A DNA stretch of 64,000 nt from Candidatus Eiseniibacteriota bacterium (GTDB lineage Bacteria > Eisenbacteria > RBG-16-71-46 > CAIMUX01 > VGJL01), in NCBI GenBank assembly GCA_041946735.1, contig JBHGAY010000008.1:1-64000 (forward strand), written 5' to 3'. This document shows positions 58,176-64,000 of this stretch, piece by piece; the first letter of the stretch is position 1; each line of letters starts with the position of its first letter. The translations under genes were made by a program, and so were the position numbers. The notes beneath the pieces were generated by a model that was not told the DNA's origin, ran no database searches, and saw only the letters and a program-made list of their open reading frames with translations.

Positions 58176-58370
58176 CCAAGATTTTCGCCGCCGAGGCGAA
58201 TCTTCCTTCGCAAGTTCGTTGTCCGGATGCTACTATCGACGGTTCGCTTCCTTGCGCCTTGCTCGACTGCCGAGCGGGGAGGCTCTCCTCCTCACGCCGA
58301 TCGAGCCGGCGCGACCGGGAACCGCGGCCGCCGGTCCCTTCGACTTCCGGGATGCAAAGGGAGTAGATCG

Positions 58371-59453
58371 ATGATGACGATGCGACCGCGCCTCCGCTTC
58401 GCCCTGCCCGCCCGTCTGGCTTCCCTCGCGACTCTCTGTCTGCTCATCGTCGCCGCCGCCAGCGTTCCCGCCGCGCGCGCGGGCGTTCCTCGCGTCATGG
58501 TCGGGGAGGACTTCGGCGCCACCTGGTGACTCTACTGCCTCTATGCCCGGTGCGGGCTTCAGGAAGTGCAGGAGGAGATGGGGCAGGAGATGGTGCATTG
58601 GGAGCTGCACCTCGCCGACGTGTTCGAGATTCCGGAGACGATCGCGCGCGCCGACTTCTACGAGCTGTACGGCCATCCTTACGTCCTGATCGATGGGACG
58701 ATCGGCGCCTTCGGGGCTCTCGACTGCGCGACCGCCGCCGACACCTACCGTCAGATGGTCCAGCAGCGGATCGAGGAAACCGGAGGGATGAGCCCGGTGG
58801 CGATCCAGGGAAGCTGGACGGTCGAGAACGGGACGATCTCGCTGCGTGCCGTGCATCGCGCTGTCGATCCGATGCCCGGATACCCGCTGCGGGCCACCTT
58901 CCTGATCTACGAGGACGGGATCCCGTGGTGTTGCGGGCACGGGCAGGACGTCTGGGACGGAGTGGTGCGACGAATTCGCGACATTCCGGTCGAGCTTGCC
59001 GCTCCCGGCGATTCCGTGGTCGTCACGGCCGAAGTGCCGGTCGAGGCGGACTGGAACGTCGACAGCCTGCACGCCGTCGCCTACCTGCAGGGCTCGGACC
59101 GGGACCGCGACATCCTGCAAGCCACCGTGCTCATCCGCGAACTGCCGGCGTTCGCGGCGGATCCTGGCGCAATGGCAGGGAAGAGCCGGTTTCTGACCCT
59201 GCCGAATCCGCTCCGGCCGGGTTCCCCGGTCTCGTTTCTCGTCTCGGAGCGTGCGGCGGGCTGGCCATTGCGCCTCGAGCTGTTCGACGCCGCCGGCCGC
59301 CTGCTCTACGAGCATCACGAGGGGGAGGCGGCCGCTGGCGTCCGCTCCTGGACGATCCCGCTGGACTTCCCGCGGAACCATCACGGAGTTTCGTTTCTGC
59401 GCCTCTCGACGCGTGACGGCGCGGTGGCGCGCAAGATCGTGCGCCTGGACTGA
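58371..59453 (+). CDS. Putative secreted selenoprotein: signal peptide + Omp28/thioredoxin-like domain (W-U-L-Y-C) + T9SS/FlgD-like C-terminal domain; in-frame TGA 58527-58529 read as Sec
   Basis: ORFs 58227-58529 and 58566-59453 share a frame. Joined they read RVMVGEDFGATW*LYCLYARCGLQEVQEE. A cis-Pro-like GHPYVLIDG motif follows, a hairpin lies just after the TGA, and the C-terminus reads PNP...LELFDAAGRLL...GVSFLRL...RKIVRLD. Confidence 0.8.
58535..58571 (+). promoter_or_regulatory. Putative bacterial SECIS element
   Basis: GCCCG-GUG-CGGGC stem-loop (58545-58557) with a G-initiated loop ~20 nt 3' of UGA. Possible lower stem CUGC(58535-38)/GCAG(58568-71). Confidence 0.6.
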
Positions 59454-59751: not shown

Positions 59752-61377
59752 ATGTCGAAGAAGGGCCGCCGCCTTCGGCGTGCGCTCGCGATCCTCGTCT
59801 CTTCGCTCGTCCCGCTCGTTCCGTGCGCGCTCGTCTCGCTCGTTTCGCGCGACGCGGCGGCGGCGCGCGATCCGGTGATCGCCAACCCGGACAGCGCCCT
59901 GGCGATCGCGCTGGCCGGCATCGCCGGGGCTCCGCTCTCCCTCGAGGAGGCGCAGCGGCTCGCGATCGACCGATCGACCGATCTGGGGCAGGCTCGTGCC
60001 GCGCGGGTCGCGGCCGAGGGGGCGGCGCGCCGCGAAAGCGGCAAGTTCGATCCGGAGCTGTTCGCCGAGGTGTCGCACACGCAAGAGGACGCGTCGAGCG
60101 CCTCGCCGTTTGCCGGCGCGGATCTCCTGCGGACGAAGACGACGCTCGGTCTCGCCGGAGCGCGCATGCAGCTTCCGCTCGGAACGCGCCTGGAAGCGGC
60201 GATGACGACGACGCGTCTGCGAACGAACTCCGGCTTCGCGGCGCTCGACCCCGAATACGACGCGTTCGGCTCGCTCTCGATCACCCAGCCCCTGCTGCAA
60301 GGGTTCGGGGCCGGAACGCGGGCGCCTCTCGCCGCCGCGCAGATCGGGGAGCAGGCCGCGCGATCGCGTGAGGACGAAGCGACGCGTGCCGTGCAGGCCG
60401 ATGTGCAGATCGCCTACTGGGACCTCTATGCGGCCGAGCGGGACTACGCAGTGCAGAAGCTGATCGTCGGTCAGGCCGAGGCGCTCCTCGAGGAGACCCG
60501 CACGCGGGCCGGCGCCGGCCTGGTCGGCCCGAGCGAAGTCGCCAACGCGCGCGTGTTCCTGGCGGAGCAGAGGCAGGCGCAGCTCGATCGCGAGGAAGAC
60601 CTTGACCGTCTCTCCGACCGGATGGCCAGACTGATCGGCTCACGCCCGCAAGGCCAGGAAGGACGCTTCCGGCCGACCGACGAGCCGCCGAGCCGGTTCC
60701 CGATCGCCGGCGCCGACTCGCTCGTCAGGGTCGCGATCGAGCGGAACGAGGGGCTCCAGGCGATGCGCGAGGACGTGGTCGCCACGCGCACCCTCGCTCG
60801 CGGCGCCGCGTGGAACGCGCTCCCAGCGCTCGACCTCGTCGCCTCGGTAGGCGGCAACGGCCTCTCCGGGACGCCGCGAAGCGTGATCTTCGGCTCCGAC
60901 ACGCTCCGCACCTCGATTTCCGGGAGCGCTTCGGACGCCTGGTCCGATGTCTTCGGGCGGGACAATCCCACCTGGTCGGTCGGCCTGCGGATGTCGGTGC
61001 CGATCGGCAGCCGCGAAGGACGCGGCGAGCGCGACCGTCTTCGCGCCGAACAGGAGCGGGCGCGGTGGGCGGTCGAGGACGCCTCGCGCCGGCTCGCCGA
61101 TCAGGTCCGCGAGACGCATCGCGAGCTGGTCAACGCGTCGCGAAGGCTCGAGGCGGCGCGCGACGGCGTCGACGCCGCGCAGGAGCAGGTCCGGATCGGG
61201 ATGATCGAATACCGCAACGGACGGACGACCGCCTTCGAGCTCGTGCGGCTCGGAGCCGACGTGGCCTCCGCGCAACGCCGCTACTCGCAGGCGCTCGTCC
61301 GCGCCGCGCAGGCGGCCGCCAAGCTGTCGCTTCTCACCTCGGGCGGGTATCCGGGGGAAACAGGAGGATCCCGATGA
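59752..61377 (+). CDS. TolC family outer membrane efflux protein
   Basis: Signal peptide, LSLEEAQRLAI, ITQPLLQG, AYWDL, W.VGL.MSVPIG, YRNGRTT.FEL. Confidence 0.9.
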   Translation: MSKKGRRLRRALAILVSSLVPLVPCALVSLVSRDAAAARDPVIANPDSALAIALAGIAGAPLSLEEAQRLAIDRSTDLGQARAARVAAEGAARRESGKFDPELFAEVSHTQEDASSASPFAGADLLRTKTTLGLAGARMQLPLGTRLEAAMTTTRLRTNSGFAALDPEYDAFGSLSITQPLLQGFGAGTRAPLAAAQIGEQAARSREDEATRAVQADVQIAYWDLYAAERDYAVQKLIVGQAEALLEETRTRAGAGLVGPSEVANARVFLAEQRQAQLDREEDLDRLSDRMARLIGSRPQGQEGRFRPTDEPPSRFPIAGADSLVRVAIERNEGLQAMREDVVATRTLARGAAWNALPALDLVASVGGNGLSGTPRSVIFGSDTLRTSISGSASDAWSDVFGRDNPTWSVGLRMSVPIGSREGRGERDRLRAEQERARWAVEDASRRLADQVRETHRELVNASRRLEAARDGVDAAQEQVRIGMIEYRNGRTTAFELVRLGADVASAQRRYSQALVRAAQAAAKLSLLTSGGYPGETGGSR

Positions 61378-62600
61378 AGCCGATGCGGAAGCCGTTGTCT
61401 CTGTCGCTGCCGCTGCCGCTGCTGCTTGCGGTGCTCGCGCTCCCGATGGCTCTGTCCTTCGGCTGCTCGAAGAAGGAGGCGGGAAAGAAGGGGGCCGCCT
61501 TCGCGATGCCCCCCACGCCGGTCGAGATCGCGGTCGCCGGCTCGCGGAGCGTTGCCGACGTCTTCGAGGCGGTCGGCACGATCGAGGCGAGAAACGCGAT
61601 CACCGTCGTCTCCGAGATCGACGGCGTCGTCCGGGAGATCCCGTTTCGGGAGGGGGATCCGATCCGCAAGGGAATGCTGATCGCGCGCATCGACGACGAC
61701 CAGCTCGCGGCGGAGGTCGCGAGGACGGAGGCGCTGCGCGATCAGAGCCGTTCGAACTACGAACGGGTGAAGGCGGTCGTCGAGCAGGGAGCGGGAGCTT
61801 CTCAGGACCTCGACGACGCCGCGGCGGCGTTGAAGGTCGCCGAGGCGAATCTCTCCTACGCCCAGGCGCGATTGAAGAAGGCGCGGATCACGGCGCCGTT
61901 CGACGGCGTCATCGGATCGCGGCGGGTGAGTCCCGGGGCGTTCGTCCGGGCGGGCGATGCGCTCACCGATCTCGCGCAGCTCGACCATATCCGCGTGCAC
62001 TTCGCAGTCCCGGAGCGTTACCTGGGCAAGCTGTCGAAGGGAGCGGCGGTGGCGATCTCGACGACCGCCTATCCTGGCGAGCACCTCGACGGGACGATCG
62101 AGGTCATCGATCCGGTGCTCGATCCGGACACGCGCTCCGCGCAGATCGTGGCGGATGCCGAGAACCTGGGAGGGAGGTTCCGCCCAGGAATGTCGGCGAA
62201 CGTGCAGGCGGTGCTCAGCCAGCGGGCGAACGCGCTCACGATCCCCAACGAGGCGGTCTTCGTCGAGGGAAGCCAGGCGTTCGTCTTCGTGATCCAGGCG
62301 GACAGCACGGTCACACGCGCGCCGCTGCAGCTCGGAACGAGGCAGGCGGACGTGGTCGAGGTTCTTCAGGGCCTCGAGCCGGGCGCCCGGGTCGTGCGCG
62401 CCGGTCACCAGAAGCTCTACGACGGGGCGAAGGTGATGCCGGTCGTCAGTCAGCCGGCCCAGGCGTCGGACGCCGGCTCGAACACTGGCGCCGCCGGTGG
62501 CGCGGGCGGCGACGGGGGCGGCACCGCTGGCACCGCGAGCGGCGATGAAGACGCCGCCGCGGACGGCAAGGGAGTCGTGATGGAGGCGGCCTCGCGATGA
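61374..62600 (+). CDS. RND efflux periplasmic adaptor (MFP) lipoprotein
   Basis: Lipobox SFGC, VVSEIDGVV..IPFREG, ITAPFDGVIG, IDPVLDPDTRS, FRPGM, GLEPGARVV..G. ATGA overlap. Confidence 0.93.
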   Translation: MKPMRKPLSLSLPLPLLLAVLALPMALSFGCSKKEAGKKGAAFAMPPTPVEIAVAGSRSVADVFEAVGTIEARNAITVVSEIDGVVREIPFREGDPIRKGMLIARIDDDQLAAEVARTEALRDQSRSNYERVKAVVEQGAGASQDLDDAAAALKVAEANLSYAQARLKKARITAPFDGVIGSRRVSPGAFVRAGDALTDLAQLDHIRVHFAVPERYLGKLSKGAAVAISTTAYPGEHLDGTIEVIDPVLDPDTRSAQIVADAENLGGRFRPGMSANVQAVLSQRANALTIPNEAVFVEGSQAFVFVIQADSTVTRAPLQLGTRQADVVEVLQGLEPGARVVRAGHQKLYDGAKVMPVVSQPAQASDAGSNTGAAGGAGGDGGGTAGTASGDEDAAADGKGVVMEAASR

Positions 62601-64000
62601 AGCTCTCCGAGATTTCGATCCATCGTCCCGTCTTCGCGACGGTCATGAGTCTCGCGATCCTCCTCTTCGGGGTGATCTCGTTCCTGCGGCTGCCGGTCCG
62701 CGAGTATCCCGACATCGATCCGCCGATCGTCTCGATCACGACGTTCTATCGGGGCGCGAGCCCGAGCGTGGTCGAGACGGAGATCACCAACGTGCTCGAG
62801 GAGCAGCTCGCGACGATCGAGGGGGTCAAGACCCTGACCTCGTCGAGCCGCGAGCAGGGATCGGTCATCACGATCGAGTTCGAGCTGGGGCGCGATGTCG
62901 ACGAAGCGTCGAACGACGTCCGCGACCGCGTCTCGCGCGTGCGTAGCTCGCTCCCGCGCGAGGCGGATGATCCGGTCGTCGCCAAGATCGACGCCGACGC
63001 CCAGCCGATCTTCTGGATCGCGCTCTCGAGCGAGCGGCACGATGGGCTGGAGCTGAGCGACGTGGCCGATCGGATTCTGAAGGAGCGCGTGCAGAGGCTG
63101 CCGGGCGTCGGATCGGTCATCATCGGCGGCGAGCGCCGCTACGCGATGCGCGTCTGGCTCGATCCGATGCGGATGGCGGCGCACGGGCTCACGACCCAGG
63201 ACGTCGAGCGGGCGATCGCCGCCGAGAACGCGGAGATCCCGGGAGGCCGCGTCGAGGGGAGCGAGCGCGAGTTCTCGGTCCGCACGCGTGGAGACCTGCG
63301 GACGCCCGAGGAGTTCGGCGCGATCATCGTCTCGCAGAAGGGGAACGAGGCGGTGCACCTCGACGACATTGCCGAGGTGTCGGTCGGGGCGGAGGACGAG
63401 CGCACGGTGGCCCGCTTCCTCGGCAAGCAGGCGGTGGGATTGGGGATCGTGAAGCAGTCGACGGCCAGCACGCTCGACGTCGCGCGCGAGGTGCGCGACG
63501 CGATCCCGAGCCTGCAGGCGGCGCTCCCGGAGGGGATGACGCTGAACGTCGCCTACGACTCCTCCATCTTCATCACCGAGTCGATCCACGAGGTGCGCGA
63601 CACGCTCCTGATCGCCGCCTGTCTGGTGATCCTCGTGATCCTCGTGTTCCTGAAGAGCGTGCGCGCGACCACGATCCCGACGATGGCGATCCCCGTCTCG
63701 ATCGTCGGCGCGTTCGCCGTCGCCTACTTCCTCGGATTCACCGTGAACATCCTGACGCTGCTCGCCCTCGTGCTCGCGATCGGGCTCGTCGTCGACGACG
63801 CGATCGTGATGCTCGAGAACATCTTCCGCCATCTCGAGATGGGGAAGTCCCGCCGGCAGGCGGCGCTCGACGGGGCGAAGGAGATCGGCTTCGCCGTCGT
63901 CGCGACGACGATCGCGCTCGTCGCCGTCTTCATCCCGGTCGCGTTTCTGACCGGCACGGTCGGCCGCCTCTTTCGCGAGTTCGGGATCACCGTCGCCGTA
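62597..64000 (+). CDS. RND efflux permease (AcrB/MdtBC-like), 3'-truncated by the window edge
   Basis: Translated by hand: MKLSEISIHRPVFATVMSL...LPVREYPDID...YRGASP.VVE...AIGLVVDDAIVMLENI. Absent from the ORF track because there is no stop inside the window. Confidence 0.95.
   Translation, partial: MKLSEISIHRPVFATVMSLAILLFGVISFLRLPVREYPDIDPPIVSITTFYRGASPSVVETEITNVLEEQLATIEGVKTLTSSSREQGSVITIEFELGRDVDEASNDVRDRVSRVRSSLPREADDPVVAKIDADAQPIFWIALSSERHDGLELSDVADRILKERVQRLPGVGSVIIGGERRYAMRVWLDPMRMAAHGLTTQDVERAIAAENAEIPGGRVEGSEREFSVRTRGDLRTPEEFGAIIVSQKGNEAVHLDDIAEVSVGAEDERTVARFLGKQAVGLGIVKQSTASTLDVAREVRDAIPSLQAALPEGMTLNVAYDSSIFITESIHEVRDTLLIAACLVILVILVFLKSVRATTIPTMAIPVSIVGAFAVAYFLGFTVNILTLLALVLAIGLVVDDAIVMLENIFRHLEMGKSRRQAALDGAKEIGFAVVATTIALVAVFIPVAFLTGTVGRLFREFGITVAV

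Follow-up and report, generated by a model that had tools for sequence, protein, structure and literature searches.

Here we describe a predicted selenoprotein gene that standard annotation breaks in two. It occupies positions 58371-59453 (+) of a 64,000-nucleotide stretch of contig JBHGAY010000008.1 (assembly GCA_041946735.1, Candidatus Eiseniibacteriota bacterium), which we refer to as the window. It would be a single gene for an exported protein of 360 residues whose codon 53, a UGA, is decoded as selenocysteine (Sec, U), a reading to which we assign a probability of roughly 0.92. We favor this reading because UGA53 takes the place of the first cysteine in the CxxC motif of homologues, a hairpin with a G in its loop follows at a fixed distance, and SelA, SelB, SelD and tRNA-Sec are encoded alongside. 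A first-pass annotation, made from the letters of the window alone, had already proposed a secreted UxxC selenoprotein at this place, and had named as its possible undoing a lack of Sec machinery, homologues with neither Cys nor Sec at the position, a misread codon, or relaxed selection downstream of the UGA. Its proposal is supported by the machinery, the codon column, the hairpin and the pattern of selection, and on each of the four counts the result went in its favor.

The in-frame TGA lies at 58527-58529, within TGG TGA CTC TAC TGC at 58524-58538, as read directly from the sequence. The open reading frames (ORFs) on its two sides, 58227-58529 and 58566-59453, share one common frame (339 = 113x3). 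Translation with TGA as U from the ATG at 58371, the best start of the gene, confirmed the earlier claim that this codon alone divides them, and yields 360 residues, in which TGA occurs once internally (U53) before the frame closes with the TGA at 59451-59453. The read-through protein runs MMTMRPRLRF...AARAGVPRVMVGEDFGATW-U-LYC..., with GGC GCC ACC TGG as the codons directly upstream of the TGA and GHPYVLIDG as residues 101-109.

Conservation of the codon was followed by a six-frame search of 61 genomes, 35 from the same order and 26 from the same class, which gave matches in 59. Strong matches were present in 35/35 same-order genomes (best E <= 1.4e-26); those in the same-class genomes were weak (best E >= 2.7e-11), with none in two. 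By hand count, 101 matches have E<=3.9e-21; exactly one TGA lies within 93 of them and none within 8. Forty loci (L021-L060) were fetched, and the Sec column could be read directly in 48 genes, where it is TGA in 43 and TGC in five, with x-x-Cys always next. In the genome to which the window belongs (G000; 4.89 Mb, 68.4% G+C, 94.8% complete), paralogues carry U at this column in six cases (contigs C71, C18, C23 and C8, and two on C24) and Cys in one (C12). The six Sec genes of this genome comprise short forms and forms of ~700 aa fused to further domains.

Public protein records give a complementary picture. An exhaustive search of 1.84 billion representatives returned 550 proteins at E<=0.001, and among the best 150 of these 550 that were inspected, 36 span the Sec column (34 with Cys, one with Ala, one with Ser), one is a 52-aa N-terminal fragment, and 113 begin after the column. 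Since the match of 112 of the 113 begins within their own first 30 residues, they represent truncated gene calls. The first-pass annotation had expected gene callers to split or truncate the studied gene itself, and this is what the public sets hold: P0003 (287 aa), which equals query residues 74-360 at 100% identity and has neither signal peptide nor active site, and P0085, an orphan 52-aa N-terminal piece of the selenoprotein. In a word-indexed protein search with the read-through protein, the sole match was the window's own truncated product. A single-protein related-locus search found 9 loci, with every motif read being the Cys form, and placed more distant Cys forms in Cloacimonadota and Bacteroidota records; its patterns are back-translated and demand a Cys codon, so that it is uninformative on the frequency of Sec forms elsewhere.

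The hairpin downstream of the UGA, with the core GCCCG-GUG-CGGGC, was examined in an alignment of 43 Sec genes, ungapped from the TGA on, in which the T of TGA is column 1 and the hairpin takes up columns 19-31. Its pairs are retained while their bases change. Pair 21-29 is CG in 32 genes and GC in 11, and is broken in none; pair 22-28 is CG in 42/43; pair 23-27 is GC in 41, AU in one and GU in one; pair 20-30 is CG in 37 and other in 6; and pair 19-31 is GC in 28, GU in 4, AU in 3 and other in 8. Covariation scores 0.223, whereas shuffled alignments average 0.095 (0/500 shuffles as high), and all slid controls score lower. The swap at 21-29 turns Ala-GCC...Gly-GGG into Ala-GCG...Ala-GCG, retaining the pair and altering the amino acid. 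The loop base G24 is found in 42/43 Sec genes vs 0/5 Cys genes, the tetranucleotide GGUG stands at columns 23-26 in 41/43 Sec genes, and the Arg codon within the hairpin is CGG in Sec genes vs CGC in the three Cys genes that retain the Arg. Minimum free energy (MFE) is -8.2 kcal/mol in the studied gene and <= -7.5 in 39/43 genes.

The legend to Fig. 2 of PMC13188914 gives, as constraints on the bacterial selenocysteine insertion sequence (bSECIS), a loop of 3-9 nt, a stem of >=4 bp, a G in the first two loop positions, a spacing of 16-37 nt from the UGA and an MFE <= -7.5. The studied hairpin, with its 5-bp stem, GUG loop, 20 nt from UGA to loop and -8.2 kcal/mol, lies within these limits, and is predicted to be a form of the bacterial SECIS element. 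The pattern of TGA, 15 nt and the hairpin core occurs six times in the 4.89 Mb of the genome, at exactly the six U paralogues, and the combination therefore goes beyond chance; with 12-14 or 16-19 nt in between instead, each spacing yields 0-1 genome matches, and the hairpin core alone gives 35. Searching the whole window against Rfam returned nothing at gathering score, whether Rfam includes a bacterial SECIS family not having been checked.

One residue carried by the hairpin deserves separate mention. The cysteine at +8 (Cys61 here) lies on UGC, which makes up the loop end and the closing pair. It is found in 43/43 Sec genes and in 4/5 TGC genes in the loci, and in 8/36 column-covering representatives, being absent from the other 28. 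This distribution fits Cys61 as a residue imposed by the SECIS element and kept as a relic, although it could also have a role at the protein level.

The genome encodes a complete selenocysteine pathway, with selA, selB, selD and tRNA-Sec all above curated cut-offs. The matches to selA (478.9 bits) and selB (349.1 bits) are open, with no internal stop under table 11, and the tRNA-Sec (72.1 bits) is called by ARAGORN as tRNA-SeC with anticodon tca. The selD gene (388 bits; G000:C2:108941-109867 (-)) has an in-frame TGA of its own, in ...MAACAG-U-ASKIAPGDL..., followed by a hairpin of 8 bp whose GGA loop falls at positions 24-26 after that codon, spaced just as in the studied gene. Elsewhere UGA keeps its usual meaning: it is the terminal codon of both the studied gene and paralogue C18, and since these end at TGA and selA and selB have no internal stop, UGA is a stop in this genome. 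A genetic code with UGA reassigned was rejected on the same grounds.

These results bear most directly on the possibility that UGA53 is decoded as something other than Sec, either by near-cognate readthrough (giving Trp or Cys) or by genome-wide reassignment of UGA. The inserted residue cannot be told by computation alone, and hairpins after a stop can stimulate ordinary readthrough too. However, UGA acts as a stop in this genome, the column is Cys in 34/36 representatives and never Trp or Gly, the full Sec pathway is encoded, and the loop G and spacing of the hairpin fit the bSECIS model and match the spacing in selD. We therefore consider decoding as another residue improbable.

That a nonsense mutation killed a CxxC gene, leaving the downstream part to decay or to be expressed from Met74 only, is precisely the reading that gene callers give (287 aa from Met74 and a 52-aa orphan), and a relative at locus L051 is indeed found in two pieces. 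Across five orthologue pairs, however, the ratio of nonsynonymous to synonymous substitution rates (dN/dS) is 0.20-0.26 on the 5' side of the TGA and 0.16-0.24 on the 3' side; purifying selection acts on both sides. The same “mutation” would also be needed in 43/48 genes across an order, the whole protein is modeled with high confidence (below), and a product started at Met74 would have neither signal peptide nor strand 1 nor active site, all of which makes a pseudogene a very poor prospect. Equally slight is the chance that the region holds a pair of genuine genes, one for an exported peptide of 52 residues that stops at the TGA and the other for a cytoplasmic protein downstream, as the separate database entries P0085 and P0003 might suggest. 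The frame is unbroken in 43/43 genes, the Cys forms run through the column as one polypeptide, Met74 is preceded neither by a run resembling a Shine-Dalgarno sequence nor by a conserved start, the N-termini of the representatives are scattered over query positions 53-164, and the thioredoxin fold depends on strand 1 and helix 1, which come from opposite sides of the TGA.

A sequencing or assembly error concealing a true TGC or TGT would take a single A/C error in a metagenome-type assembly, but is negligible given that contigs of runs X2, X3 and X4, from three other studies, span 58527-58529 with 0 differences and that TGA stands at this column in six paralogues of the same genome and 37 further genes of relatives. 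Runs X5-X7 cover parts of the stretch only, X5 without coverage of the TGA; the runs with the studied stretch are labeled soil, industrial waste, landfill, mangrove and rhizosphere metagenomes, with no RNA run among those listed.

The read-through protein was modeled with AlphaFold2 from an alignment of 88 rows, with a mean predicted local distance difference test (pLDDT) score of 90.8 and a predicted template modeling (pTM) score of 0.71. A signal helix (residues 14-30) is followed by a thioredoxin core made up of strand 43-49, helix 54-73 with U53 at its start, strand 74-80, helix 88-96, strands 104-107 and 111-114, and helix 119-137. Then come an all-beta sandwich (143-253), a disordered linker (261-269) and a C-terminal beta-sandwich, modeled over residues 273-358. 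Pro103, which is >=90% conserved, falls directly before strand 3 (104-107). The model thus bears out the thioredoxin fold with a conserved proline in GHPYVLIDG that had been proposed from the letters. Pfam gave 0 families at E<=1 for the read-through protein.

The signal peptide region reads MMTMRPRLRFALPARLASLATLCLLIVAAASVPAARA|GVPRV..., and in homologues an AxA immediately N-terminal to a conserved [GS]VP[KR]V supports the predicted cleavage site. A lipoprotein identity was considered and rejected, no lipobox fitting around Cys23 as read from the sequence. At the other end of the protein, the family profile for the C-terminal domain matches FlgD immunoglobulin (Ig)-like domains, the PorU C-terminus and PG93, and Por_Secre_tail is matched at E<=0.01 by 42/88 family members. 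The genome encodes components of a type IX secretion system (T9SS), namely PorU (596 bits, cut-off 420) and SprA (356+128 bits, cut-off 200). About 45 places in it match the PorU model solely over its last ~80 positions and represent sorting-type C-terminal domains, which indicates a large predicted repertoire of T9SS cargo.

Selenoproteins of this general kind had been predicted before. Zhang & Gladyshev 2008 (PMC2398784) list a “hypothetical protein GOS_C”, a UxxC family of thioredoxin-like fold and unknown function, represented in the GOS data by 74 sequences with Sec and 312 homologues with Cys, and with a bacterial SECIS after the UGA; a table in PMC13188914 equates it with NCBIfam NF045500, “Omp28-related selenoprotein”. 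The studied protein shares with it a UxxC (U53-L-Y-C56) in a thioredoxin-like fold, a predicted SECIS downstream of the UGA and a large number of homologues with Cys, and NF045500 aligns with residues 41-270 of the studied protein and with 80/88 family members at E<=0.01. In contrast, the studied protein scores 22.2 bits vs the 200-bit cut-off, the paralogues in its genome at most 53.9 bits, and the best E among the 88 members is 3e-24; GOS_C comes from ocean samples, unlike the metagenome runs named above. As the scores are far below 200 bits, the curated model at its cut-off fails to name these genes. The studied gene is thus a divergent branch or distant relative of NF045500 and not a member by the curated criterion, and it does not found a new category, an Omp28-related UxxC selenoprotein family having been in print since 2008. 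Within a limited literature collection, no paper joining Omp28 or Eisenbacteria with a selenoprotein was found.

The relation to Omp28 proper, asserted by the first-pass annotation, stands as distant homology and fails by cut-off. NF033782 (Omp28 family outer membrane lipoprotein) is matched by 53/88 family members at E<=0.01, and paralogue C23 reaches 34.2 bits with PF11551 over its residues 80-227, just below the threshold of 34.9, whereas the studied protein itself, with no Pfam match and no lipobox, scores 10.8 bits to NF033782.

Structural comparison with Foldseek gave as top PDB match the 35-kDa hemin-binding protein HBP35 of Porphyromonas gingivalis (PDB 5y1a; E 3.1e-13, 356 columns), at a template modeling (TM) score of 0.52 (query) or 0.59 (target) and a root-mean-square deviation of 9.1; the second match was 2axo, also of thioredoxin-like fold. 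The match extends over the whole length, and the two proteins share their domain order, with a thioredoxin-like domain bearing the active-site dyad, a beta-sandwich, and a C-terminal domain that serves surface export in HBP35 and may do so in the studied protein. HBP35 is also found at the sequence level with the family profile (E 1.1e-7), with ...FTAEWCGYCPGGK... aligned with ...fgatwCtyCpaAr..., so that WCGYCP of HBP35 corresponds to the family motif W-[U/C]-x-x-C-P (here W-U-LYC), with Cys in HBP35 and Sec in the studied protein. According to PMC2907840, HBP35 combines a thioredoxin-like motif with a C-terminal domain for surface export and reduces insulin, an activity abolished in the C48S/C51S mutant; the likeness does not imply heme binding, a role in heme acquisition or a particular substrate for the studied protein. 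Another profile match is 1fo5, a thioredoxin of the MJ0307 type (E 1.4e-8), whose CPHCP lines up with CtyCp. Classical thioredoxins share the beta-alpha-beta-alpha-beta-beta-alpha core, the dyad at the start of helix 1 and the conserved Pro before strand 3, but the studied protein differs from them in its predicted export, its two extra beta-sandwich domains and the Sec in place of the first Cys.

A quick maximum-likelihood tree (88 rows, 208 columns; active-site columns excluded; midpoint root) places all 42 Sec rows in one clade (Shimodaira-Hasegawa-like approximate likelihood ratio test, SH-aLRT, 99) together with 18 truncated database rows, two of them near-identical to fetched read-through genes, and 9 Cys rows. 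The 19 rows outside this clade are all Cys, and the tree requires at least five U/C changes. Under the midpoint root, these were probably one gain of Sec from Cys followed by at least four reversions to Cys. A broader scenario, which we put forward tentatively and at less than even odds, is that the switch from Cys to Sec took place at the base of the order, that the gene then radiated into several surface-exported, T9SS-tagged Sec oxidoreductases per genome with at least four Cys reversions, and that the Arg-Cys-Gly/Ala motif imposed on helix 1 by the SECIS element may have fossilized in the revertants.

Sec paralogues often stand in tandem arrays of two to six genes, as at G000:C24:1-5000 (L041), G022:C10:35364-48801, G015:C7:841346-853342 and G020:C21:78704-89161. 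Many of the arrayed paralogues are of the ~700-aa form, in which a thioredoxin/Ig module, a middle region of ~350 aa and a sorting-type tail follow one another; the middle region has a weak DUF4159 match in the Cys paralogue C12. The L051 gene (L051:2610-3280 (-); G004:C6:972109-972827), a Sec form, is matched in two pieces, query 3-67 and query 71-221, with 12 nt between them, and may be a frameshift or a decaying copy in a tandem array.

Several observations weigh against decoding of UGA53 as Sec in an exported thioredoxin-like protein, or against parts of this interpretation. The 60 nt after the UGA are no stabler than shuffled sequences (z 0.24; 100/200 shuffles fold equally well), and RNAalifold on the alignment of Sec genes gives just 3 pairs. 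A proposed 9-bp stem was not upheld, its outer four pairs being unpaired in most genes; its five inner pairs hold across the family, and over the whole stem 69.5% of cells pair. Because the hairpin overlaps the protein motif A-R-C-G/A, its conservation could be partly protein-level. GGUG is departed from in 2/43 Sec genes, AGUG in L031 and GUUG in L057, and the Sec column holds Ala or Ser instead of Cys in two representatives. The homology to HBP35 is remote, at 15% identity, with a profile match that is significant at residues 19-76 only. The cleavage site of the signal peptide was read by eye, and Por_Secre_tail scores 13.3 bits (E 0.061) on the studied protein, below the cut-off of 23. Finally, the direction of change from Cys to Sec is not proven, given a quick tree search and a midpoint root.

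Two of these departures come with further detail. The GUUG in the hairpin loop at L057:4421-4474 (+) accompanies an Arg codon CGT, and may be a natural variant or a copy losing Sec decoding. The Ala and Ser representatives, P0006 and P0039, keep the clade-specific ARC/SRC motif, and may be true Sec-to-Ala/Ser substitutions or translation artefacts of the records.

In the mechanism that we propose for the Sec-decoding gene, SelB-GTP-Sec-tRNA(Sec) would bind the hairpin at 58545-57 with the ribosome at the UGA, and selenocysteine would be inserted. The product would have a redox centre, U53-x-x-C56, cycling between selenenylsulfide and selenol/thiol at the N-terminus of helix 1 of the thioredoxin fold. 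The signal peptide would lead the unfolded chain through the secretory (Sec) translocon, and the C-terminal sorting-type domain would pass it to the encoded type IX secretion system, which would place it on the cell surface or outside the cell. There, if P. gingivalis HBP35 is taken as the analogue, the protein may serve as an extracytoplasmic thiol-disulfide oxidoreductase, with Sec raising its reactivity.

Table 1. Coordinates in the window of the candidate selenoprotein gene and its predicted elements, with the basis for each
Feature	Position	Strand	Basis and remarks
Shine-Dalgarno-like AGGGAG	58357..58363	+	Sequence read, putative function; 7 nt 5' of ATG 58371
Complete predicted selenoprotein gene, 360 codons incl. 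Sec53 + terminal TGA	58371..59453	+	Translation with TGA=U; genome search match 1-360 with one TGA
Predicted Sec-type (signal peptidase I, SPase I) signal peptide, residues 1-37	58371..58481	+	Read by eye; Arg-rich n-region, hydrophobic core, A-R-A then G38
Thioredoxin-fold domain, residues 38-137	58482..58781	+	AlphaFold2 secondary structure; profile matches 1fo5, 1nho, HBP35 across CxxC
UGA predicted to be read as selenocysteine U53, first residue of UxxC	58527..58529	+	Homologue column; contigs of 3 other studies
Cys56, second residue of UxxC redox pair	58536..58538	+	T10 and G11 invariant in alignment of 43 Sec genes; aligns with second Cys of HBP35 CxxC
Bacterial SECIS-type hairpin core GCCCG-GUG-CGGGC	58545..58557	+	Codons A59-R60-C61-G62-L63; apical loop begins 20 nt after UGA
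Internal ATG (Met74), gene callers' start of 287-aa product	58590..58592	+	Match to database protein P0003
Ig-like beta-sandwich, residues 143-253, Omp28-like part	58797..59129	+	Model strands; NF045500 aligns over 41-270; PF11551 in paralogue C23
C-terminal beta-sandwich, residues 273-360, FlgD-Ig / T9SS type-A sorting-domain kind	59187..59450	+	Model; profile matches FlgD, PorU C-terminus, PG93
Terminal TGA, genuine stop	59451..59453	+	No hairpin of SECIS core kind 15 nt after

An antisense open frame of 383 codons (window 58233-59384 (-)) spans the whole selenoprotein gene; it has no Pfam match and is most likely a by-product of the 68% G+C. The upstream neighbors of the gene are YchF, DUF885 and a methyltransferase. 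Immediately downstream lies an efflux operon with a TolC-like outer membrane factor (59752-61377 (+)), a membrane fusion protein of the HlyD type (within 60810-62600 (+)) and a resistance-nodulation-division (RND) pump of the AcrB type (62597 to the window end at 64000 (+)). The neighboring genes, the efflux operon included, show no evident link to the selenoprotein and give no hint of its function.

For annotation, the consequence is that a predicted exported redox family stands in public records lacking both signal peptide and active site (113 of the best 150 representatives), and such truncated entries mislead function prediction. Because the Sec forms are truncated and NF045500 misses them, selenoproteome counts of these soil- and waste-associated bacteria are underestimates. 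The family also offers a natural series that permits direct comparison of Sec forms with the Cys revertants nested among them and with the Cys forms of the outgroup, and which shows how a SECIS element within a coding region constrains the protein, in the CGG vs CGC Arg codons, the pair-keeping Gly/Ala swap and the Cys at +8 confined to the Sec clade. It raises the question of why Sec should be favored in an extracytoplasmic oxidoreductase. If the tentative scenario of a switch at the base of the order and subsequent radiation is true, much of the selenium of this lineage would go to extracellular redox chemistry, a use that is unusual for selenoproteins and invisible in current annotation.

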